A DNA stretch of 64,000 nucleotides from Candidatus Falkowbacteria bacterium (GTDB lineage: Bacteria > Patescibacteriota > Patescibacteriia > XYB2-FULL-38-15), in assembly GCA_016214745.1 (NCBI GenBank), contig JACRNW010000012.1, positions 4,368 through 68,367 of the forward strand, read 5' to 3'. A program made the position numbers and the translations under genes. Positions 1,562 through 63,251 of the stretch are shown here, piece by piece (position 1 is the stretch's first letter; every line of letters begins with the position of its first letter). The notes under the pieces are model-generated. The model had not been told where the DNA came from and did not search any database. It was given only the letters and a program-made list of their open reading frames with translations.

Positions 1562-4108
1562 ATGTTTGACTTCCCAGAAGTTCGTCCAATTGGTAAACAA
1601 AAACAAAATGACCCTTCGGGTCATCACCCGCATGGTGACAAAAATAGTTTAAGACCTCTGATTTTAATTTTGGGGTTTTTTGCCATTGCTTCCGCCGGCG
1701 TAATTTTATTTGCCCTATTTCAAAAATTGGGGCCGGAAGCTTCTGCCGCTCCGGGTATTTATAAAACTTTAAATTACCAGGGAAAATTGGAAGACGTTGG
1801 CGGCGTCACCGTGGCCGACGGGTCATATAATATTAAACTTACAATTTATGATGCCGCCGCGGCCGGCAACGTTCTTTGGACCGCTCGCGAGTCGGATGCT
1901 TGCGGCGCGCCGTTTAATCCGGCGGCAAAATCAGTCACGACTTCGCTTGGTGTTTTTTCAACACAACTTGGAGAATCTGGTGACTGTCCGATCAATTTGG
2001 ATTTTAATACAGATTCTTATTATCTTGGTGTGACAGTTGGCGCGGATTCGGAAATGACGCCGAGAAAAAGAATTGGCGCGGCTGGCTACGCCTTCAACGC
2101 AGATTTGTTAGATGGCCTTAATACTTCCGCGGTCGGCGGCGCTTCGGCTTTTGTTCCGGCAGCTGATTCCAGCGGAAATTTTGTTTTAACTGGCAACGTT
2201 ACTTTTGACACAAATACTTTTGCTCTTGATTCTACAAATGATAATATTGGGATCGGCACGGCGGCGCCTGATATTGCTCGTACTTTGGATTTAATAATCA
2301 GCAAAAAGTACGGAATTTATGCTTCATCAAACTCTACCACAAACCACATGGCGGTGATTTATGGCGAGGCGACAGACACAACTAACATTGATCAGATGGG
2401 CGGATATTTTTCCGCGGCAAGCCCCAGCGGAAAAGGTGTTTTTGGGACAGCGGTTACCGCCGGCAATCCGTTTATTCCAAATTATGGCGGATATTTTATT
2501 GCGGCTGGCGATTCTGGAAATGGTGTCTATGGCGAAGCTACCGCGACAACTGGGGCCACTAACTACGGCGGGTATTTCACGGCGGGGGGCGATACGGGCT
2601 ATGGAGTTTACGGTTGGGCTGCCGGCACGGGTGGAGTAAATTATGGAGGGTATTTTAGAGCAAACGGCCTTGGCGGTTATGGTGTTTATGGCTGGGCCGC
2701 GGATATGGGAGCCACAGGAAATTACGGCGGTTATTTCCAGGCTAGCGGTCAAAGTAGCTACGGCGTCTACGGCTACGCGAGCGAAGCCACGACGGTAAAT
2801 TACGGCGTCTACGGACAAGCCGAAGGCCCGGCTGGCTATGGTGTTAAAGGTTACGCGGGGAATATTGTTGGCGGAAATTACGGCGGGTATTTTGAGGGCG
2901 CCGCCGCAGGAAGTTACGGCGCTTACGGAAAAGCGCCGGGCACCGGCGGCTACGGTGTTTACGGTTGGGCTTCAAACGCGGGCGCGCCAAACTACGGCGG
3001 TTATTTTAAATCAGACGGCGCGGGCGGTTACGGCGTTTACGCGTTGGCTACTGATACCACCGCGGTCACAAACTACGGCGGCTATTTTACGGCCGCGGGA
3101 ACTACGGCGCGGGCGGTTTATGCTGAAGCCAGTGACCTTACCTCAATAAATTTTGGCGGTTATTTTATAGCTAGAGGGGTAGATGGGGGCACGAGTGGAG
3201 TTTATGGAGAAGCTACGGCTGCTGGTTCTGTTTACGGTGTTCAAGGATTTGCTTCTAATAGTGGGGCTGTAGCAAATTACGGCGGTAATTTTGCGGCTGA
3301 CGGCACTGGCGGTGCTCGTGGTGTTTTTGGTTTCGCCTCTAACGTCGCAGGCACCAATTACGGAGTTTATGGGCAAGTAGCCTCCTCGGCTGGCTGGGGC
3401 GGATATTTTACCGGCGGCAATGGGCTTTACGCTAGCAGATTTAGCATTGCTGATACAACGAGCGCCATATCTTACAACACTATCGGCGCGCCCGCGGCAA
3501 CACATACCGCAGCCGGAGAAATTGAAAACGCCTCGGATCTTTTTATTGCCGATGACTTGGAAATCGGCGGTCAGGGTTGGTCCACCGGAGGCTATACGGA
3601 CTTGGCTGAAATGATTGCTTACAGCGGAGAGGGTGAAGCTGGCGATGTGGTCGTAGTTGATGAAAACAACGATAACGCCGCGAAACTCGCGACAAAACCT
3701 TATGATCAAAGTGTTCTCGGAATAATTTCCACTAAACCGAGTTTAATAATTACCGGCGGTATTAAGGAAGGGAAATTGATGGCTGTGGCCGGCCGCGTGC
3801 CGACCAAGGTGACGAACGTAAACGGCGCGATTAAGCGCGGCGACTTACTGACAACTTCTGCGGCGCCTGGCCGCGCCATGAAGGCAACCGAGCCAGGACC
3901 GATTGTAGGTAAGGCTCTTGGAGAGTGCGACGAGAGTGAATGCACAATTTGGGTTTTTCTAAATGTTAGTTGGTATGGCGGTGTAAGAACTGAAACAACG
4001 GCAATAGTTTCTTCGGTAATTGAAGATGCCAAAAATTTGGAGAGAGAAAATCTTTTGACAAAATTATCAGAGCTATGGCAAAAAATTGTTTCGTTGTTGA
4101 AAAAATAA
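1562..4108 (+). CDS. Large membrane-anchored surface protein. It has about 12 tandem Gly/Tyr-rich repeats (NYGGYF.A.G..GYGVYG) and a C-terminal domain paralogous to the upstream ORF.
   Basis: The N-terminal hydrophobic segment reads ILILGFFAIASAGVILFALF. A roughly 66-nt periodic coding repeat spans 2400..3400. The shared motif is AGRVPTKVTNVNGAIKRGDLLTTSAAPGRAMKATEPG. Confidence 0.6.
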   Translation: MFDFPEVRPIGKQKQNDPSGHHPHGDKNSLRPLILILGFFAIASAGVILFALFQKLGPEASAAPGIYKTLNYQGKLEDVGGVTVADGSYNIKLTIYDAAAAGNVLWTARESDACGAPFNPAAKSVTTSLGVFSTQLGESGDCPINLDFNTDSYYLGVTVGADSEMTPRKRIGAAGYAFNADLLDGLNTSAVGGASAFVPAADSSGNFVLTGNVTFDTNTFALDSTNDNIGIGTAAPDIARTLDLIISKKYGIYASSNSTTNHMAVIYGEATDTTNIDQMGGYFSAASPSGKGVFGTAVTAGNPFIPNYGGYFIAAGDSGNGVYGEATATTGATNYGGYFTAGGDTGYGVYGWAAGTGGVNYGGYFRANGLGGYGVYGWAADMGATGNYGGYFQASGQSSYGVYGYASEATTVNYGVYGQAEGPAGYGVKGYAGNIVGGNYGGYFEGAAAGSYGAYGKAPGTGGYGVYGWASNAGAPNYGGYFKSDGAGGYGVYALATDTTAVTNYGGYFTAAGTTARAVYAEASDLTSINFGGYFIARGVDGGTSGVYGEATAAGSVYGVQGFASNSGAVANYGGNFAADGTGGARGVFGFASNVAGTNYGVYGQVASSAGWGGYFTGGNGLYASRFSIADTTSAISYNTIGAPAATHTAAGEIENASDLFIADDLEIGGQGWSTGGYTDLAEMIAYSGEGEAGDVVVVDENNDNAAKLATKPYDQSVLGIISTKPSLIITGGIKEGKLMAVAGRVPTKVTNVNGAIKRGDLLTTSAAPGRAMKATEPGPIVGKALGECDESECTIWVFLNVSWYGGVRTETTAIVSSVIEDAKNLERENLLTKLSELWQKIVSLLKK

Positions 4109-4248: not shown

Positions 4249-4330
4249 TCCCCCTCTACCCTTGGGGGAGAGGGTTGGCCCGCCTGCCACGCTAGCGCTG
4301 GCGTTGCGGGCAGGGGTGAGGGGTATGCGG
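4249..4330. repeat. GC-rich hairpin repeat, copy R-a. It is the reverse complement of the copy inside the RT gene at 39826..39912.
   Basis: The sequence cccctctacccttgggggagagggttggcccgcctgccacgctagcgctggcgttgcgggcaggggtgagggg is the reverse complement of 39838..39905 with few mismatches. Confidence 0.8.
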
Positions 4331-4332
4331 GG

Positions 4333-4361
4333 TTGACAAAAAGGTAAAAATGTGGTATTAT
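4333..4361 (+). promoter_or_regulatory. Sigma70-like promoter (TTGACA, 17 nt, TATTAT). It belongs to a promoter-leader module that recurs at 37463 and 49596.
   Basis: The sequence is ggTTGACAaaaaggtaaaaatgtggTATTATaaat. It is nearly identical to 49594..49630 and 37462..37498. Confidence 0.55.
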
Positions 4362-4478
4362 AAATGGTAAAATTAAAGGATGGAGTTTAGGCGAAAAAGC
4401 TCTTAAATTAAAGCTTTTTCGGGTAAGCTTCAACTTTTGAAGAGCCGTCTCGGCAGCGCCGAGACAAGGAGGTTGGCA

Positions 4479-31075: not shown

Positions 31076-31145
31076 AAACCCCGCCCCGATTTTGCCCCTC
31101 ACCCAACCCTCTCCCCGATGGGGAGAGGACTAAGGTGAAGGGGGT
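31076..31145. repeat. GC-rich hairpin repeat, copy R-f.
   Basis: The sequence is cccctcacccaaccctctccccgatggggagaggactaaggtgaaggggg. It shares the CCCCTCAC and CTCTCCCC-GNNG-GGGAGAG modules with the copies at 37533, 50699, 4249 and 39826. Confidence 0.7.
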
Positions 31146-36322: not shown

Positions 36323-36499
36323 TCTCCCCTTAAGATAAGGGGAGATTAAGAGGGGTTATGAGCGGTGGATTTTAGTGGCCGGTTCATAACGCCCCCGCCC
36401 GCCACGCAAGCCAGCCCCGCCTGCAACGCTATGCTTGCATTAGCGGGCAGGTTGCTGGCGTTGCGGGCAGGCCCAGCCCCTCTTACCTTAAGAGGGGAG
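36323..36499. repeat. Structured GC-rich direct repeat, copy 1, flanking the xer gene (related to the R-a/R-b core).
   Basis: It is nearly identical to 37648..37827. The end hairpins are tctcccctta-ag-taaggggaga and cccctctta-cc-ttaagagggg. The core is gctggcgttgcgggcagg. Confidence 0.8.
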
Positions 36500-36502
36500 T
36501 TA

Positions 36503-37420
36503 TCATTTCCCGCGTCGGCGGCCGTGAAAACTTTTGTGCACGTCGCGAAGTTGTTGATTTGTGATATGCGTATAAATTTGCGTAGTAGTAATGGAAGAAT
36601 GGCCGAGCATGGCCTGGACCGAACGGATGTCGGCGCCGTTCATCAATAAATCCGTGGCGTAAGAATGGCGCATGGTGTGCGGCGTAACTTTTTTGGTGAT
36701 GCCGGCGATTTTAGAATATTTTTTTACGAGCCGTTCCACGCTCCGGGGAGTGAGAGCCGCTTCACTCTCATGCGCCCGGTCGTGGGAAACGAACAAAAAC
36801 GGTGAAACGTCTTGGCGCGCCTCCAGATATTGTTTGACCCAAAACTTGGCCTGGTTTGATAAAAAGACTATGCGCGGTTTGTCGCCCTTGCCGCGGACTG
36901 TAAATTCCTCTTTTTTTAAATTGACTTGTTCTTTTTTTAAATTTGCCAGCTCAGAAACGCGGAGTCCGGTGGAAAAAAGCATTTCCACAATCGCCTTGTC
37001 TCGTTTTTTTATAATTTCCGGCGTCTCGGCGAGCGTTGGCGCTTCAAGTAGCCGCTCCAAATCGCTTCCTTCTAAAAAATCCACCACGCGTTCGGGCATT
37101 TTGCCCAATTCAATTTTTTCCGCAGACAAAGTTTTGATGTCGCGCTTGGCCAGATATTTCAAAAAAGCTCGTAGGGCGATCAGATGATAATTTTGCGTAT
37201 TCTTTTTTAATTCTCTTCCTGTTTCGTCGGCAAAACGATTAAGCCAAAGGCGATACTGCCTAACCTTTTCTTGGGTAATGCCGGAAGGGGAGGAATTGCC
37301 TGCCCACTCGTTAAACCTTTTTAAATAAAAATCATAATTCCGTATGGTCTTGGAGGAACGGTTTTTTTCTATTTCCAAATATTCCAGAAATTGAGTGATC
37401 AAAGTGTTGAGGTTGGCCAT
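36503..37420 (-). CDS. xerC: Tyrosine site-specific recombinase, XerC/XerD-like.
   Basis: The N-terminal SAM-like domain reads FLEYLEIEKNRSSKTIRNYDFYLKRF. The catalytic C-terminus reads HTMRHSYATDLLMNGADIRSVQAMLGHSSITTTQIYTH. Confidence 0.85.
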   Translation of the reverse strand: MANLNTLITQFLEYLEIEKNRSSKTIRNYDFYLKRFNEWAGNSSPSGITQEKVRQYRLWLNRFADETGRELKKNTQNYHLIALRAFLKYLAKRDIKTLSAEKIELGKMPERVVDFLEGSDLERLLEAPTLAETPEIIKKRDKAIVEMLFSTGLRVSELANLKKEQVNLKKEEFTVRGKGDKPRIVFLSNQAKFWVKQYLEARQDVSPFLFVSHDRAHESEAALTPRSVERLVKKYSKIAGITKKVTPHTMRHSYATDLLMNGADIRSVQAMLGHSSITTTQIYTHITNQQLRDVHKSFHGRRRGK

Positions 37421-37462: not shown

Positions 37463-37520
37463 TTTACTATTGACAAAATCCTCAAAATGTGGTATATTTA
37501 ATTGTTAGTAAATAGTTCTT
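37463..37520 (+). promoter_or_regulatory. Conserved promoter-leader module (TTGACAaaatcctcaaaatgtggTATATTtaattgttagtaaa), paralogous to 4333 and 49596.
   Basis: Aligned by eye to 49594..49650 (ttgacaaaatggttaaaatgtgttattctaaattgttagtaaa) and to 4333..4375. Confidence 0.55.
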
Positions 37521-37532
37521 TTAAAGGTAAAA

Positions 37533-37610
37533 CCCCCTCACTCCAACTCTCTCCCCGAAGGGGAGAGAGAGTCTCCTCGCCCCATTGGGGAGAGGATTAA
37601 GGTGAGGGGG
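37533..37610. repeat. GC-rich hairpin repeat, copy R-e (double hairpin).
   Basis: The sequence ccccctcac...ctctccccgaaggggagagagagtctcctcgccccattggggagagg...gtgaggggg has flanking inverted repeats. Confidence 0.75.
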
Positions 37611-37647: not shown

Positions 37648-37827
37648 TTCTCCCCTTAAGGTAAGGGGAGATTAAGAGGGGTTATGAAAGGTGGATTTTT
37701 AAAATCACAATTCATAACGCCCCCGCCCGCCACGCAAGCCAGCCCCGCCTGCAACGCTATGCTTGCATTAGCGGGCAGGTTGCTGGCGTTGCGGGCAGGC
37801 CCAGCCCCTCTTATCTTAAGAGGGGAG
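37648..37827. repeat. Structured GC-rich direct repeat, copy 2 (partner of 36323..36499).
   Basis: About 97% identical over about 175 bp. Confidence 0.8.
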
Positions 37828-37923: not shown

Positions 37924-38391
37924 ATGAAGATGGATACCCTGCGTTCCGCGTCCCACCTGCAGCGCGAGATCGGCGACGAGCTGTTCGCGGCTCTCGTGAA
38001 CTCGGACAACACCGCGGCGGTGCGGAAGTTCGCCGCGACGCTCGTCAAGTCCGCCCTCCCGACCGAGATGACGGTCGGCGGGGTCACCTACGAGATCCTC
38101 TCGTTCCTCAAGGGGGACGAGAAGAGCGTGGTCGGCCACACCATGGTCGAGCGGGCGAAGGAGATGGGCGCCAACCTCGGGGAGGAGGATTGCGAGCGCT
38201 TCCTGAAGAACCAGTCCGACATCCCCGCCGCGCTCTGCGGCAAGGTCGCCTTCGTCTTCCCGGACTTGCGGCACCCGGACGACCGCGAGTACGTCGCGGA
38301 CCTCGACTGGGGCGGCGACGGCTGGTACCTGCTCTGGGGCTGGCTCTCGCGCGACTGGCGCGGCCGCGGTCGTCTCCTTCGCCGCAAGTAA
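37924..38391 (+). CDS. DGR target protein (156 aa, high GC) with a C-terminal variable region.
   Basis: RBS aaaggaa. The last roughly 45 codons (38262..38387) align to the TR at 38735..38870. Differences fall mostly at TR adenines (AAC->GGC/CGC/GAC/CTC; GAC->GGC). The 3' 15 nt are identical (cgtctccttcgccgc). Confidence 0.75.
   Translation: MKMDTLRSASHLQREIGDELFAALVNSDNTAAVRKFAATLVKSALPTEMTVGGVTYEILSFLKGDEKSVVGHTMVERAKEMGANLGEEDCERFLKNQSDIPAALCGKVAFVFPDLRHPDDREYVADLDWGGDGWYLLWGWLSRDWRGRGRLLRRK
38262..38387 (+). repeat. DGR variable repeat (VR).
   Basis: It is homologous to the TR. All TR AAC codons are substituted in the VR. An IMH-like GC-rich 3' end is present. Confidence 0.75.
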
Positions 38392-38456
38392 TGTTTTGTA
38401 ACTCGGCCCTTCAAAAAGGCCGTGTCGCTCGGACCCTTGGACACTCGGTTCCTCGG

Positions 38457-38500
38457 GCCCTCACACATTTCGTTGTGTGAGGGCCTATTTTTTTAAACTA
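38457..38500 (+). terminator. Perfect 12-bp hairpin downstream of the VR, followed by a T-run (terminator and/or DGR homing-associated stem-loop).
   Basis: The hairpin is ggccctcacaca-tttcgt-tgtgtgagggcc, followed by ctattttttt. Confidence 0.6.
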
Positions 38501-38734
38501 AATTTTGATATACTTCAAAATAGATTTTACGGTTACGGCGTCGGCTATTGCTTATGCGCGTAGAATCTCGCCATTTCATTTTTCAGAATGCGATCGGTTA
38601 AGGCTTATCGCAGAGCAAGAATGAAGTGACTAAAATGAAGATACTTGGTGCGGCTTGTTAGGGAGACATAGCTTCTCCGAATACGATTCAACCCCGAGAG
38701 TATTCAAAGGGTGGTGGCACGGACGACAGGCCGC

Positions 38735-38870
38735 ATAATTCTGCGCAACCCGAACGGCAACCTCTACGTCGCCTACCTCAACTGGAACGACGACCGCTGG
38801 ATCGTGAACTTCAACTGGCTCGACAACGACTGGAACGACAACGATCGTCTCCTTCGCCGCCAGTCTCTTC
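38735..38870 (+). ncRNA. DGR template repeat (TR), a noncoding template rich in AAC codons.
   Basis: It contains seven in-frame AAC triplets where the VR has G/C-containing codons. The ORF called at 38711..39172 is the TR read in frame and overlaps avd on the other strand. Confidence 0.75.
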
Positions 38871-38900
38871 ATCAACGCTCCCGTCCCTTTGGGCGGGAGT

Positions 38901-39209
38901 TTATTTTCGGAAGGATTGTAAATTTTTTATCCAACCACCAAGCATTATACCGGCGGACGAAAGTTTTTGGGAGAGCCGCGCGTATTTTCCGGTATCTATT
39001 CCTTTTGCTTCCCAGAGAATTGCCACAAAAAATTTCAGATTGTCTAATTTACGATTTAATTGCAGCAAAAAGTTTAATTTATCTTCGCGTCTTGTATATT
39101 GCGCGGTTAAGGCCAATTCCAAAATATTTACGAATAATTCGTCTATTTTTTTGCCGAGCGTGTAGCGTGTGAGGCGGGGCAGATGCGTTAAAAAACTATG
39201 CCACAACAA
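38901..39209 (-). CDS. avd: DGR accessory variability determinant (Avd, four-helix-bundle protein).
   Basis: It is 102 aa. The C-terminal LGGWIKNL resembles the Bordetella Avd LGSWIARV. Four-helix-bundle / 23S-IVS family features are present. It lies between the TR and the RT but is transcribed divergently from the RT. Confidence 0.65.
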   Translation of the reverse strand: MLWHSFLTHLPRLTRYTLGKKIDELFVNILELALTAQYTRREDKLNFLLQLNRKLDNLKFFVAILWEAKGIDTGKYARLSQKLSSAGIMLGGWIKNLQSFRK

Positions 39210-39234
39210 ATAAGTTTCTTTGAAAGTGGAGATA

Positions 39235-40362
39235 ATGGGAATCTCGGTAAAATTCCGTTGGGGGGGGGGATTTAAAGGGCGGATCGTTCCGAAAATTCAA
39301 TTGGCTCATAAATTTGAAGATATTATTTCTTTAGAAAATTTATTTTTGGCCTGGCAGGAATTTTTAGTTGGCAAAAAGGGTAAGCGCGACGTCCAGATTT
39401 TTGCTCGCGACTTGGCTGATAATATTTTAGCGCTCCACGAAGATTTAGCAAATAAAACTTATCGCCACGGCGGATATGAAAGTTTTTACGTCAACGATCC
39501 GAAACGCCGACATATTCATAAAGCGGCGGCGCGCGACCGTTTACTCCATCACGCCGTTTACAGAATTCTTTATCAGTTTTTTGAAAAAACATTTATTGCC
39601 GACTCCTTTTCCTGTCGCTTAGGGAAAGGAACACACAAGGCCATTAATCGTTTCCGGGCCATGGCTTTTCGGGTAAGCCAAAATCACACGCGGACGGTTT
39701 GGGTTTTGAAATGCGACATTAAAAAGTTTTTCGCGAGCATTGACCACGAGGTTTTACTTAAAATTTTGAAAGAATATATTCCGGATGAAAATATTTTGTG
39801 GCTGCTGAAAAATGTGATAGAAAGTTTTGCCACTCTCCCCCTCACCCCTGCCCGCAACGCCAGCGCTAGCGTGGCAGGCGGGCCAACCCTCTCCCCGAAG
39901 GGGCGAGGGGACGAAAACGGTGTTGGTCTGCCGCTTGGCAATTTGACCTCGCAACTTTTCGCCAATGTTTATATGAATGTTTTTGATCAGTGGGTTAAAC
40001 ATAAACTGAAAGCCAAAAATTATTTACGCTATGCCGACGACTTTGTTTTTCTTTCCGAAAATCGTGAGTGGCTTTTGAATATCGTGCCGCAGATTAAAAA
40101 GTTTTTGGCGGAAGAATTAAAACTGACGCTTCATCCAAAGAAAATTATTTTGAAAACCGTCGTTTCGGGCGTTGATTTTTTGGGTTGGGTGTGCTTCTCG
40201 GACCATCGCGTCCTGCGGCAGACGGCGCGGCGGCGGATGTTAGCGCGTATTTTGGAAAATCCCACACAAGAAACTCTGCAATCATATTTAGGTCTTCTGA
40301 AACACGGCAATACTCTTGGAGTACGGTGGCAGACTCTTATAAATTATTGGTTGTGGGGGTGA
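39235..40362 (+). CDS. DGR reverse transcriptase.
   Basis: Motifs present: ENLFLAWQEFLVGKKGKR; GLPLGNLTSQLFANVYMN (DGR-type motif 4); LRYADDFVFL (YADD). There is no maturase/X domain and no intron structure. A G10 tract sits at 39260..39269 near the N-terminus. An in-frame GC-hairpin repeat insert lies at 39826..39912. Confidence 0.85.
   Translation: MGISVKFRWGGGFKGRIVPKIQLAHKFEDIISLENLFLAWQEFLVGKKGKRDVQIFARDLADNILALHEDLANKTYRHGGYESFYVNDPKRRHIHKAAARDRLLHHAVYRILYQFFEKTFIADSFSCRLGKGTHKAINRFRAMAFRVSQNHTRTVWVLKCDIKKFFASIDHEVLLKILKEYIPDENILWLLKNVIESFATLPLTPARNASASVAGGPTLSPKGRGDENGVGLPLGNLTSQLFANVYMNVFDQWVKHKLKAKNYLRYADDFVFLSENREWLLNIVPQIKKFLAEELKLTLHPKKIILKTVVSGVDFLGWVCFSDHRVLRQTARRRMLARILENPTQETLQSYLGLLKHGNTLGVRWQTLINYWLWG
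39826..39912. repeat. GC-rich hairpin repeat, copy R-b, inserted in-frame within the RT gene.
   Basis: It is the reverse complement of 4249..4330. It translates as ATLPLTPARNASASVAGGPTLSPKGRGDENG without stops. Confidence 0.8.
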
Positions 40363-49545: not shown

Positions 49546-49593
49546 TGTAATCATACCAGAAAGGGGGTGGCGTGTCAATCTCGGCGACAAGCC

Positions 49594-49650
49594 GGGTTGA
49601 CAAAATGGTTAAAATGTGTTATTCTAAATTGTTAGTAAAATTGGTCTTTT
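49594..49650 (+). promoter_or_regulatory. Conserved promoter-leader module (ggTTGACAaaatggttaaaatgtgtTATTCTaaattgttagtaaa).
   Basis: Paralogous to 4333 and 37463. Confidence 0.55.
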
Positions 49651-50698: not shown

Positions 50699-50752
50699 GT
50701 CCCCCTCACCTCAATCCTCTCCCGCAAGGGGAGAGGAGGAAATTGTGGGGAT
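50699..50752. repeat. GC-rich hairpin repeat, copy R-g. It is preceded by a ttttggat tandem repeat at 50641..50695.
   Basis: The sequence is ccccctcacctcaatcctctcccgcaaggggagaggagg. Confidence 0.7.
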
Positions 50753-56925: not shown

Positions 56926-57003
56926 GGCCCTATCGTCTAGTCTGGTCTAGGACACCACGCTTTCAATGTGGTAACCCGGGTTCGAATCCCGGTGGGGCTA
57001 CCA
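56926..57003 (+). tRNA. tRNA-Glu (anticodon TTC).
   Basis: Cloverleaf: GGCCCTA-TC-GTCTAGTCTGGTCTAGGAC-A-CCACGCTTTCAATGTGG-TAAC-CCGGGTTCGAATCCCGG-TGGGGCT-A-CCA. The 3' end is overlapped by IR1-L and by the recombinase ORF tail. Confidence 0.75.
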
Positions 57004-58525
57004 GAAAAAAACTTTTCGGATTTTCGGTAAAAATTTGGTTGACGGCGCACAGCGCCGCCCACGGGTTTTTCGGCGAATTGTCGCCGTTTTTTATTTCCCC
57101 CCACACCACTTGTCCGCCCGTAAGGCGGAGGTTCGAGCCAAATATTTTTTTGGCCATAACCTTTTTGTCTAAAAGGTTATGCTCCCGCGCGATTTTAGGC
57201 AGATTCTCTGCCTCTTTTATCCATTCCTTCATCGGTTCGATCCAGCCAGTCCGCTTTTGTTTCAGGTGGACAATTTTTTCTTCCAGCGACTTTTTCTCAC
57301 TTATAAATTTAGCCTTCTTTTCTAAGTATACCTCTCGCTCAATATCCTGCTCCAAGTAACTATCTAAAAGTCGCTGTAGCTTCATTTTTAGGGACTCTAT
57401 GGTATTTTTGATCTCTTGAACAAAAGCGGCCGAGGATTGGGCATCTTGGTTTTTGTCTTTTTCGAGCAAGGCGGTTAATTGCGTTGCCCAATCCTCGCTC
57501 AAAGAAAATTTTTCAAGCAAAAGGGATGTCTGCTCATCTAAACACTCCTGGCGAATACAGGGCTCGTCACATTTTATTGCCTTGTTCTTTTTGGTGCAGT
57601 GATAATAAATATAATCATGAGTATTACCATTCTTTTGTTTTTTCACCCTGTATTCGCCAGTTATGCCCATACCACAAGTGCCACATCTTAACATGCCGCA
57701 AAATGCTTGCGGTTCATTTTTTGTTTTGTGGTGCGGTCTGCTTTTTTGCTTCAAAATATTCTGTACTTGGTCAAAAATTTTCTTTGAGATGACTGGCTGA
57801 TGTTTGCCCTCATAAAGTTCTTTACCGTACCTAAAAAATCCAACATAAAACGGATTGGAAAGGATAAAAGAAACTCTGTCTCGTTTCCAGTGTTTACCAT
57901 TACGCGATGTTATTCCTTGTTGCGCCAAAAAGTTAGAGATATCCTCTAGTCGTGAATTGCCTTGCGCGTATAGTTCAAAAGTTTTTCGCAAGATTTCCGC
58001 TTGCTTTTTATCCACAGCCACATTTTTAGTGCGGGGGTCGTTGAAATACCAAAACGGCGCAAGGCCGGGATACTCTCCGCGCCTAACTTTTTGGCGCATA
58101 CCTCGCTTTACATTTTCGGATAATGAATCAACATAATATTTGCTTTGCCCAAAAGCAATATTTAGCATAAATTTCCCTTGTGGCGTGCTTTCAAACCAAA
58201 ACTGCGGAAATTTTAAGGCCGTAATATGCCCGCAATCTAAAAGATAAATTATCTTTCCACCATCCACAGAATTGCGCGCTAATCGGTCGGGATGCCACGA
58301 AATTATGCCATTTGCTTCCCCGCGCTCTATTCTTTCTAACATGGTATTAAAAACCGGTCTGCCTGGAATTTTAGCCGATTGTTTTTCTATTAACTCCTCA
58401 ACAATAATCAGACCTTCATTTCTGGCAAAGGCGCGCAATTCTGTGGTCTGGGCTTCAATACTCAAAACTTGCTTATCTTCCACATCCGTGGATTTGCGGG
58501 CATACAAAAAGAATTTTTGTTCCAT
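56963..58525 (-). CDS. Large serine recombinase (resolvase/invertase N-domain + recombinase domain + zinc ribbon). Its C-terminal roughly 45 aa are encoded by IR1-L.
   Basis: Catalytic N-terminus LYARKSTDVEDKQVLSIEAQ ... GIISWHPDRLARN. Zinc ribbon CGMLRCGTCGMGITGEY..YYHCTKK. A C-terminal coiled coil is present. The start is reassigned to MEQKFFLYARKST. Confidence 0.85.
   Translation of the reverse strand: MEQKFFLYARKSTDVEDKQVLSIEAQTTELRAFARNEGLIIVEELIEKQSAKIPGRPVFNTMLERIERGEANGIISWHPDRLARNSVDGGKIIYLLDCGHITALKFPQFWFESTPQGKFMLNIAFGQSKYYVDSLSENVKRGMRQKVRRGEYPGLAPFWYFNDPRTKNVAVDKKQAEILRKTFELYAQGNSRLEDISNFLAQQGITSRNGKHWKRDRVSFILSNPFYVGFFRYGKELYEGKHQPVISKKIFDQVQNILKQKSRPHHKTKNEPQAFCGMLRCGTCGMGITGEYRVKKQKNGNTHDYIYYHCTKKNKAIKCDEPCIRQECLDEQTSLLLEKFSLSEDWATQLTALLEKDKNQDAQSSAAFVQEIKNTIESLKMKLQRLLDSYLEQDIEREVYLEKKAKFISEKKSLEEKIVHLKQKRTGWIEPMKEWIKEAENLPKIAREHNLLDKKVMAKKIFGSNLRLTGGQVVWGEIKNGDNSPKNPWAALCAVNQIFTENPKSFFLVAPPGFEPGLPH
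56999..57135. repeat. Inverted repeat IR1-L (137 bp), a perfect inverted copy of 58737..58873. It starts in the tRNA-Glu 3' end.
   Basis: The reverse complement of 58737..58873 matches base-for-base as read. It contains the hairpin ccgcc-cgtaa-ggcgg. Confidence 0.85.
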
Positions 58526-58736
58526 ATATTTTTTATTAAAATTTAAATAGCCGCCCTGGTGCAGCCAACCCAAGAGAAAGTCTCAAGGATTGATTCCAAG
58601 ACGGCTATTAAAAAAGACTTTCTTGATTTGGTTGGCTGCGTATTAAGTATACCACAAATATAAAAAACAACAAAACAAAAATTCTTTTTGTCGGGCAAAG
58701 CAAATAACGAGACAGAATTTCAAATCGCGCGGGTGG

Positions 58737-58873
58737 CGAACCTCCGCCTTACGGGCGGACAAGTGGTGTGGGGGGAAATAAAAAACGGCGACAATTCGCC
58801 GAAAAACCCGTGGGCGGCGCTGTGCGCCGTCAACCAAATTTTTACCGAAAATCCGAAAAGTTTTTTTCTGGTA
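58737..58873. repeat. Inverted repeat IR1-R.
   Basis: Partner of 56999..57135. It generates the spurious ORF 58688..58918. Confidence 0.85.
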
Positions 58874-58887
58874 TCACTTTACAACGA

Positions 58888-59009
58888 AATACGAACCTTT
58901 TTTGAACAAAATTATTAGGGGTTTATGGTGTAGGGGCTGGCCGCCCCTACAACCCCGCAAATTCGTGCGGGCAAAAAGGAAGGGGTTTTAGGGGAGGGAA
59001 TTTTTGCCC
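58888..59009. repeat. Inverted repeat IR2-L (122 bp), a perfect inverted copy of 63129..63251, composed of three hairpins.
   Basis: gaaatacgaaccttttttgaacaaaattattaggggtttatggtgtaggggctggccgcccctacaaccccgcaaattcgtgcgggcaaaaaggaaggggttttaggggagggaatttttgccc equals the reverse complement of 63129..63251. Confidence 0.85.
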
Positions 59010-63128: not shown

Positions 63129-63251
63129 GGGCAAAAATTCCCTCCCCTAAAACCCCTTCCTTTTTGCCCGCACGAATTTGCGGGGTTGTAGGGGCGGCCA
63201 GCCCCTACACCATAAACCCCTAATAATTTTGTTCAAAAAAGGTTCGTATTT
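63129..63251. repeat. Inverted repeat IR2-R.
   Basis: Partner of 58888..59009. Confidence 0.85.

Follow-up and report, generated by a model that had tools for sequence, protein, structure and literature searches.

A Falkowbacteria diversity-generating retroelement whose adjacent variable and template repeats appear to come from two sister types

Diversity-generating retroelements (DGRs) of Candidate Phyla Radiation bacteria (CPR, or Patescibacteria) mostly share one plan, architecture B3, in which the template repeat (TR) is followed by a reversed avd gene and by the reverse transcriptase (RT) gene; it accounts for 90% of CPR DGRs (Wu et al., 2018, Nucleic Acids Research 46:11, PMC5758913). 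Small targets without a known domain are the norm in CPR. Roux et al. (2021) placed within their DGR clade 2 only elements restricted to Patescibacteria, whose targets typically have neither transmembrane nor known domains. The class of the variable repeat (VR) has been ranked among the most stable features of DGRs, and remote targets are known for other DGRs (Wu et al., 2018, PMC5758913). Here we describe the DGR found between positions 37924 and 40362 of a 64,000-nucleotide stretch of contig JACRNW010000012.1 (the window, from here on), which belongs to a metagenome-assembled genome (MAG) of Candidatus Falkowbacteria. It is a chromosomal DGR of the Patescibacteria (CPR) type with architecture B3, that is, of an already described kind. 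What is truly unusual in the window is that the VR and the adjacent TR are non-cognate, as judged by comparison with sister loci (designated with L numbers): a target of type A faces a TR with a body like that of type B and a 3' end of type-A or ancestral kind. The core consists of the following parts.

37924..38391, plus strand: target gene (type A; GenBank HZB93_03580), 155 aa, with a predicted N-terminal three-helix region and a compact C-type-lectin-like domain
38268..38388, plus strand: VR, the last 40 codons of the target, which fits a type-A TR (e.g., that of L009) and not the body of the adjacent TR
38370..38385, plus strand: 3' end of the VR, resembling an initiation of mutagenic homing (IMH) site, 16 adenine-free nt equal to TR 38845-38860
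38743..38864, plus strand: TR, with 30 adenines and 10 in-frame AAC codons
38901..39209, minus strand: avd, 102 aa, on the opposite strand between TR and RT
39220..40362, plus strand: DGR RT, likely start ATG 39235 (GenBank start TTG 39301), with LGNLTSQ (motif 4) and YADD
39838..39910, plus strand: copy of a palindromic repeat inside the RT gene, GC-rich and in frame, in the loop between ESF and VGLPLGNLTSQ

Over an ungapped alignment at a fixed offset of +475, VR (38268-38389) and TR (38743-38864) share 85 of 122 bases. The differences are concentrated at the adenines of the TR: 22 of the 37 mismatches fall on them and 15 on non-adenine positions, 22 of the 30 TR adenines are changed in the VR and, with the last codon omitted, the changed sites are 22/29 for A and 14/88 for non-A (Fisher p = 5.8e-9). 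None of the ten in-frame AAC codons of the TR is kept in the VR. Agreement at non-adenine positions reaches 77 of 95, compared to a window-wide background of 22 +/- 4.9, and scoring only the non-adenine TR positions we found no further copy of the TR or the VR on either strand of the 64,000 nt. The 16-nt identity is followed by an A/C difference (38386 versus 38861), a VR/TR difference seen equally in L009, L010, and L011, and the similarity is gone from just past the stop codon (38392 on). This GC-rich, adenine-free shared end, followed by divergence and by an inverted repeat downstream (see below), has the sequence of a putative IMH/IMH* pair. A first-pass annotation made from the letters of the window had already noticed that the end of the gene aligns to a noncoding repeat, that the AAC codons of the downstream copy are replaced in the gene copy, and that the final 15 nt are identical in the manner of an IMH; these observations hold, the pair being ungapped and unique in the window and the identical run 16 nt long. 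Its count of about 13 non-adenine differences was low (15 by per-position alignment), and although the adenine bias that it took for the specific TR-to-VR signature is strong, the alignment is no simple record of copying from TR to VR. The near-identity at non-adenine positions expected of a VR made by its adjacent TR is lacking in the window pair, which concerns the cognacy of the pair and leaves the DGR nature of the element untouched.

Cognate VR/TR pairs of the relatives are much cleaner. Nine of them, with 105-117 nt scored, have 0-2 non-A mismatches and four more (L032-L035) have none in cores of 90 nt, whereas the window pair has 14, plus the IMH codon. Clean adenine-only pairs with the layout of the window were found in L009, L010, L011, L014 (two VRs), L019, and L029-L035. 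The 15 non-A mismatches of the window follow a pattern. At 13 of these positions the VR has the base of the L009 (type A) TR, and at 14 the window TR has the base of the L029 (type B) TR, the two exceptions among the 15 being 38299 and the IMH/IMH* C/A site 38386. Compared to the L009 TR the window VR shows 17 A-site and 5 non-A mismatches, instead of the 22 and 15 given by the adjacent TR. In turn, 12 of 120 positions separate the window TR from that of L029, and half of these 12 lie at the 3' end, while 25 of 120 separate it from that of L009. With the type-B TRs of L029 and L030 the body of the window TR (38743 to ~38845) has 90-95% identity; the 3' end (38846-38863; CGTCTCCTTCGCCGCCAG, RLLRRQ) and the spacer that follows are like those of L009 and of the outgroup TRs, and the switch from type-B-like to type-A-like bases takes place within 9 nt (38839-47). 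Targets of type B (L029, L030, L031, and L033) are 189-203 aa long, end in RLARCK and have cognate TRs.

The mismatches therefore are fixed differences between two TR types, which excludes drift and low-fidelity reverse transcription as their origin and means that the adjacent TR did not write most of the VR. Drift had been one of the explanations offered in the first-pass annotation and is contradicted by these position-wise matches; an older VR or a second TR elsewhere, its other suggestions, pointed in the right direction. The impression that adenines were replaced almost exclusively by G or C (13 G, 7 C, and 2 T against the adjacent TR) came from reading the spectrum against a non-cognate TR: pooled over the cognate pairs of relatives the substitutions are 93 G, 17 C, and 38 T, biased to G, with T common. 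The last 36 nt of the VR (38350-38385) have no non-A mismatch with the resident TR, compared to two with the L009 TR, and since this end is compatible with the resident TR, some partial homing confined to the 3' end of the VR may have taken place.

The other parts of the core agree with a DGR. The RT gave an E value of 4e-24 with RVT_1 and its top match among solved structures was the Bordetella bRT (8ub7, 1.8e-37), 24 orders of magnitude ahead of group II intron and retron RTs (no better than 1.3e-13), while the score with the NCBIfam group II model was 131 bits (cutoff 300). Both this ranking and the motifs (motif 4 of the [LIV]GxxxSQ form and YxDD) put it in the DGR RT lineage, and not with group II introns or retrons; the first-pass annotation had considered that grouping as evidence against a DGR, and with bRT as the best match among solved structures it was not found. 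There are at least 7988 RT relatives at E <= 1e-60, and those with a named source come from Patescibacteria-group MAGs; as this is true of the source-named top homologs, the RT probably belongs to clade 2 of Roux et al. (2021). The Avd accessory protein was recognized by Pfam PF22296 bAvd (E = 1.2e-10, 42.3 bits, above the cutoff of 40) and, below the cutoff of 80, by NCBIfam NF033474 (DivGenRetAVD; 8e-18, 64.7 bits). The Avd-like protein and the RT with GNLTSQ and YADD that had been proposed from the letters are thus borne out by the bAvd and bRT matches. Orthologs of avd with equal length and strand exist in L009 (91% amino acid identity), L030, and L033, and the presence of the reversed 102-aa gene in sister loci rules out a local inversion or truncation.

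The whole order of target (+), TR (38743-38864, +), avd (38901-39209, -), and RT (39220-40362, +) in this Candidatus Falkowbacteria MAG agrees with architecture B3. The layout recurs in 13 related loci, and all the related loci with a core keep it. It was seen in L009, L010, L011, L014, and L019, retrieved with a 13-sequence target-family alignment (26 loci from CPR MAGs, several with mislabelled "Gammaproteobacteria" titles), and in L027, L029, L030, L033, and L034, retrieved by the closest-RT search. The early claim of a complete cassette thus stands, with target and VR, TR, Avd, a DGR-type RT and relatives with clean adenine-only pairs. Its layout had been considered unusual, which does not hold for an arrangement found in 90% of CPR DGRs and conserved in related loci; layout and domain-less target are therefore known properties of CPR DGRs.

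The palindromic repeat inside the RT gene represents a net gain of 48 nt with respect to L009, is 96% complementary to 4251-4323, and lies in a loop at which the alignment to bRT splits. The length of this loop goes from about 5 to 60 aa across the clade, and it often holds translated fragments of similar repeats. With the insertion in frame and the loop hypervariable in length, inactivation of the RT by the repeat was rejected as an idea, the insertion being poor evidence for it. Near the 5' end of the RT frame there is also a homopolymer of ten G (39260-39269, codons WGGGF), downstream of ATG 39235 and upstream of 39301, with a length conserved in L009 and L030. Such a tract could switch RT expression by strand slippage, but might also be just a conserved leader.

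The target, identical to HZB93_03580 of the Candidatus Falkowbacteria MAG, gave no match in Pfam, NCBIfam or PDB sequences, and only its predicted structure was informative. The AlphaFold model (predicted local distance difference test, pLDDT, 93.8) matches almost exclusively C-type lectin-like domains, including the DGR targets TvpA and Mtd. The absence of an obvious C-type-lectin scaffold noted in the first-pass annotation thus fails at the level of the fold, and in the model the VR occupies, as in other DGRs, the C-terminal end of a scaffold of the ligand-binding kind (C-type lectin or Ig fold). Homologs (n = 90, ~155 aa) all lack a Pfam domain, and the source-named ones come from Patescibacteria-group MAGs; the closest in the databases is 71% identical and the cluster of the target itself has a single member. 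Along the last ~35 residues of the family alignment conserved W, L, G, and R alternate with hypervariable positions (xWxGxxWVxxWxWLGxxWxGxxRxLRRK), an alternation that, at the level of sequence, fits the pattern expected for the VR of a DGR.

Target genes also stand out by their composition. The one in the window has a GC content of 67.7% and a GC at third codon positions (GC3) of 0.95, in a window of 44% GC and beside an RT gene with GC3 of 0.47. The targets of the syntenic classes (see below) have a GC of 0.66-0.68 and their neighbors 0.41-0.46, and in almost every locus in L001-L036 the target-family genes have 0.46-0.68 compared to 0.31-0.50 for the remainder of the locus. This excess spans the whole gene, beyond the VR, and was seen for target types A, B, and C. 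Neither Wu et al. (2018, PMC5758913) nor Roux et al. (2021) mention a target-specific GC excess. Some 430 nt upstream of the target start, ahead of a cluster of repeats, there is a near-consensus promoter (37470-37498; TTGACA, 17-nt spacer, TG, TATATT), and a promoter-like TTGACA...TGTGGTAT(A/T)AT recurs at 4327-4368 and 49591-49632.

The DGR sits at a conserved chromosomal locus, beside a recombinase gene.

36503..37420, minus strand: XerC/XerD-like tyrosine recombinase, conserved upstream neighbor of the DGR locus (context)

Its product matches NCBIfam XerC (4e-74) and XerD (4e-73), both below cutoffs, and XerA_Arch above cutoff, and the gene is syntenic in L027, L029, L030, L031, L033, and L036. 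The collinear order is tRNA-His/Arg, xerC (-), target, TR, avd (-), RT, rpsO, NYN, and pnp. Nucleotide homology of 84-91% extends through the tRNAs and xerC, breaks at ~37430 and is strong again near 38500. With the context collinear in at least five other genomes and a recombinase of the XerC/D kind, we ruled out a mobile island integrated at the tRNAs by the neighboring integrase. The same slot, with RTs 72-79% identical to that of the window, contains different target/TR classes: A (window, L009), B (L029, L030, L031, L033), C (L027, L034, L035), and D (L032). The MAG CAYZNO carries two DGRs of different type, one A and one C. One target (P0089, in L036) is a chimera in which an N-terminus of type A is followed by a B-like C-terminal domain, with a VR that contains F-x-W-L like the window TR. 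This syntenic locus (L036 2444-2970; Joint Genome Institute, JGI, Ga0568848_0069844) has suffered a deletion from mid-leader through RT, including TR and avd; the orphan target and its terminator remain, as do the promoter of the TR and ~60 nt from the start of the leader, after which comes the upstream region of rpsO. Compared to L009, the window locus has 91% identity in Avd, 79% in RT, 69% in the target, and 80% in the TR, with 91% in the VR-TR spacer and 100% in the TR-avd spacer.

We consider it probable that this is a genuine DGR of the known CPR type, with a VR and TR that form a non-cognate mosaic of sister types, and that module exchange made it so. From the sequences compared, the most likely cause would be homologous exchange of a target module or of a TR body between sister DGRs at the conserved locus. 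Sister DGRs with flanks ~90% identical at one locus would exchange either module. By a crossover in the conserved leader or terminator a new target would come in without its TR, while a short conversion patch replacing the TR body would lead to the same end configuration; in either case no full-length homing would have taken place since.

Two other explanations would have the mismatches arise in place. A CPR RT that mutates also non-adenine positions was suggested by Wu et al. (PMC5758913) for CPR DGRs with several non-A-to-N differences, but here the non-A differences coincide with the fixed differences between types A and B, and neither the nine clade pairs (0-2 non-A in 105-117 nt) nor the four others (none in 90-nt cores) behave in this way, so that we find low fidelity hardly credible at all. 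An inactive, decaying DGR, in which the 15 differences would be neutral drift of VR or TR, is very improbable. It is true that drift would yield non-A mismatches, that the syntenic L036 lost TR, avd, and RT and kept an orphan target, and that the RT has an extra insertion. However, 13 of the 15 VR bases are those of one sister TR and 14 of the 15 TR bases those of another, i.e., inherited states and not new mutations; whole codons differ at 2-3 positions (GAG/CTC, TCG/GAC, TGG/TTC); conservation of the noncoding flanks is 91-100%, but the TR has only 80% identity with that of L009; and the avd and RT open reading frames (ORFs), the ten AAC codons, promoter, leader, and hairpins are all intact. 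Position by position, the match to the L009 and L029 TRs rules out drift or non-A mutagenesis as the source of the 15 mismatches.

A second DGR acting in trans, with a type-A TR elsewhere in the genome that wrote and maintains the VR while the local TR serves another target, seems to us possible, if doubtful, and could coexist with the exchange. Another contig of this MAG carries a paralogous target gene of type A (P0064, HZB93_01850); in a codon-by-codon reading, adenine changes alone suffice to obtain all residues of its VR from an L009-type TR, but not from the window TR. The sister MAG CAYZNO has two DGR cores (L009, L035) and several type-A targets (L002, L009, L024, L026), targets without a nearby DGR are common in the family, and remote targets have been documented for other DGRs (Wu et al., PMC5758913). 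Nevertheless, no second RT or TR of the same MAG was found among the retrievable sequences, two TRs sharing one IMH* would compete for the VR, and the end of the VR (its last 36 nt, 38350-38385) has two non-A mismatches with the L009 TR but none with the local one. We regard as unlikely an assembly chimera, in which a target and a TR-avd-RT from different strains or loci would have been joined across the near-identical terminator and leader. The source is a metagenome-assembled genome, genomes with two paralogous DGRs exist, and sister loci are 98-100% identical between target terminator and TR leader (38428-38507), enough for a mis-join in the assembly graph. Yet joining canonical type-A and type-B loci needs two switches, one of them inside the 9-nt interval of the TR. 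The k-mers of de Bruijn-graph assemblers are assumed to be longer than 9 nt, and therefore the junction internal to the TR is unlikely to be an assembly join. A single switch would need an unobserved target type, with a B-like body and an RLLRRK end, and the pattern scan found no such VR; besides, the xerC flank and the rpsO-pnp flank are both collinear with four independent assemblies.

Several points weigh against module exchange as we propose it. A VR cognate to the window TR was not found in the JGI metagenome collection by an A-to-N pattern scan of the TR body, which gave just a single further locus (L031), of the ordinary type-B kind. Since the outgroup TRs show that RLLRR is ancestral, it is equally conceivable that the window TR is an intermediate of evolution and not a patch with two breakpoints. 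Either the TR body or the target may have been replaced, so the direction may be read both ways. The linkage of target and TR is that of an assembled MAG contig, and exact-sequence look-ups of proteins of the MAG (window target and P0064) gave no match on indexed contigs. The picture would be no different with one mis-join in the near-identical stretch 38428-38587, given a co-occurring strain with the cognate target of the TR. Finally, the RT bears the extra repeat insertion, though in a loop that is length-variable throughout the clade.

Between the target and avd we have recognized the following noncoding elements.

38404..38422, plus strand: short GC hairpin (CGGCC...GGCCG), 13 nt past the stop codon, identified by folding and conserved in L009, L029, L030, and L036
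38455..38494, plus strand: intrinsic-terminator-like hairpin (38455-38486; stem 13 bp, loop 6 nt) followed by T7, which would end the target transcript
38506..38514, plus strand: extended -10 promoter-like element, by consensus match, TGATATACT in the window and TGnTATAAT in L029, L030, L031, and L036
38632..38740, plus strand: structured leader RNA directly upstream of the TR, with a helix (38647-38659 / 38722-38736) enclosing two internal hairpins
38877..38900, plus strand: post-TR hairpin with T-rich tail, 10-bp stem, 12 nt past the TR, terminator-like on the plus strand

The hairpin at 38455-38486 lies 64 nt past the stop codon and scores as an intrinsic terminator; the whole element (38455-38494) is 100% conserved in L009, and L029 and L030 have instead other hairpin-plus-T-run elements. 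The perfect 12-bp hairpin that the first-pass annotation saw after the VR is therefore real (with a stem of 13 bp), although it is the terminator of the target gene, and its terminator-like nature and distance from the stop codon rule it out as the cruciform of the DGR. The short hairpin at 38404-38422, conserved in type-A and type-B loci, is a better-placed candidate for the inverted repeat that follows the IMH in DGRs. The extended -10 element would mark the start of a separate TR transcript. As for the leader, RNAalifold on nine loci gave 95.8% of cells paired compared to 33-50% with slid partners, and eight pairs with compensatory changes compared to 0-2 in the slid controls; none of 500 shuffles reached the observed values. 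The stem of the post-TR hairpin covaries too (CTCCCGTC/GGCGGGAG, CTCCCTC/GAGGGAG, and CTCTCTCG/CGGGAGAG in different loci), and by analogy it may correspond to the region that forms the 3' spacer in the Bordetella DGR RNA, with a putative role in priming. No Rfam family was found for the TR leader or the hairpins, either at the gathering cutoff or at E <= 1. Leader and post-TR hairpin are common to type-A and type-B loci and to remoter members of the clade. Because there is a terminator for the target, a conserved extended -10, a covarying leader helix, and a covarying 3' hairpin with a T run, the TR appears to be a self-contained transcript of ~385 nt, with predicted ends at ~38521 and ~38905 and with avd and RT expressed divergently.

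Parts, adenine bias, mosaic, synteny, and RNA covariation are observed, whereas how the element is transcribed, primed, and homes, whether it is active now, and which way the exchange went are matters of inference. An RNA starting from the extended -10 at 38506 would contain the leader (38632-38740), the TR (38743-38864), and the terminator-like hairpin (38877-38900). A complex of RT and Avd, made from their divergent genes, would bind this RNA, by analogy with the Bordetella phage DGR, and reverse-transcribe it with misincorporation opposite adenines. At the 3' end of the target the cDNA would then take the place of the VR, with the 16-nt IMH-like identity as a guide, perhaps together with the GC hairpin past the stop codon, and each such homing would re-code some 20 surface positions of the compact C-type-lectin-like domain.

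The window contains other repeats and possible mobile segments. A family of GC-rich palindromic repeats, similar to miniature inverted-repeat transposable elements (MITE) or repetitive extragenic palindromic (REP) sequences (CCTGCCCGCAACGCCAGC...; CCTCTCCCCGAAGGGGAGAGG), is scattered through this AT-rich genome, with copies at 39838-39910 (the one inside the RT gene), 4251-4323, 36383-36499, 37711-37827, 37543-37610, 31103-31143, and 50701-50751. Two of them form a 117-nt pair (36383-36499 / 37711-37827), 99% identical, that flanks the xerC-like gene on both sides. Sister loci have other insertions of the palindromic-repeat kind, those of L009 in the VR-TR spacer. Further away there are two perfect (100%) inverted repeats, 56999-57135 / 58737-58873 (137 nt) and 58887-59009 / 63129-63251 (123 nt). 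One pair brackets a large serine recombinase (56963-58573, minus strand; Resolvase, Recombinase, and Zn_ribbon domains) and the other an ORF of 1328 aa with a C-terminal GNAT domain, beside a tRNA-Glu; the segment may be able to invert or to move, or may be a product of the assembly. The regions 1302-1514 and 2399-3309 contain tandem degenerate repeats of 21/27 nt, which on reading by eye we take to be proline/threonine-rich, and an array of ~80-nt period sharing AAATTACGGCGGTTATTTT that would encode a repetitive protein.

A wider reading, which we put forward only as a tentative suggestion, is that this DGR has been caught in the middle of a retargeting, and that related Falkowbacteria trade with one another GC-rich modules of target plus TR, belonging to at least four classes, at one conserved chromosomal site beside an Xer-like recombinase. 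If true, the next full-length homing would graft a type-B variable surface onto a type-A scaffold, the IMH* end being compatible, and the GC-rich targets (GC3 up to 0.95 in surroundings of 31-50% GC) would mark a pool of horizontally circulating cassettes. If general, recombination of TR bodies and targets around a constant core of RT, Avd, and leader would amount to a second, coarser layer of DGR diversification. Surveys usually count non-adenine VR/TR mismatches as low fidelity, or drop them; here they are the footprint of two mixed sister DGR types, and neither drift nor sloppy reverse transcription. One syntenic locus with four target/TR classes, and with the core lost in L036, offers a natural series for the gain, swap, and loss of targets, and the idea that the B3 TR is an independent structured transcript can be tested as an account of how the RNAs of CPR DGRs arise and are recognized.

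Considered simply as a DGR the element offers nothing new, since the published norm for CPR already includes such a layout, such a host group, and small domain-less targets. It shares with the B3 DGRs of CPR the order and strands of TR, avd, and RT, a single adjacent upstream target, the chromosomal location, the host, and a small target without transmembrane segment or known domain. What sets it apart from them is the non-cognate pairing of the VR with the adjacent TR, whose 15 non-A mismatches can be assigned to two sister TR types. In contrast to the stability of the VR class found by Wu et al. (2018, PMC5758913), four VR/target classes occupy one syntenic site next to RTs that are 72-79% identical. 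The target itself can be likened to Treponema TvpA (2y3c) and to Mtd (1yu0), compact DGR variable proteins with the C-type-lectin fold, of which the nanoarchaeal AvpA is another. Mtd belongs to the DGR of Bordetella phage BPP-1 (mtd-VR, avd, TR, brt), with which the window element has in common the RT (8ub7) with an IGxxxSQ-type motif 4 and YxDD, the Avd partner, an AAC-rich TR, a C-terminal VR in a fold of the C-type-lectin type, an IMH-like end rich in GC, and an inverted repeat past the VR. However, the BPP-1 TR lies between avd and brt on one transcript, whereas in the window an inverted avd separates TR and RT, and the TR is apparently its own transcription unit, with a covarying leader of ~100 nt and a terminator hairpin. 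The BPP-1 element resides in a phage and diversifies a tail fibre, while the one described here is cellular and its target is a cytoplasmic-looking protein of 155 aa.

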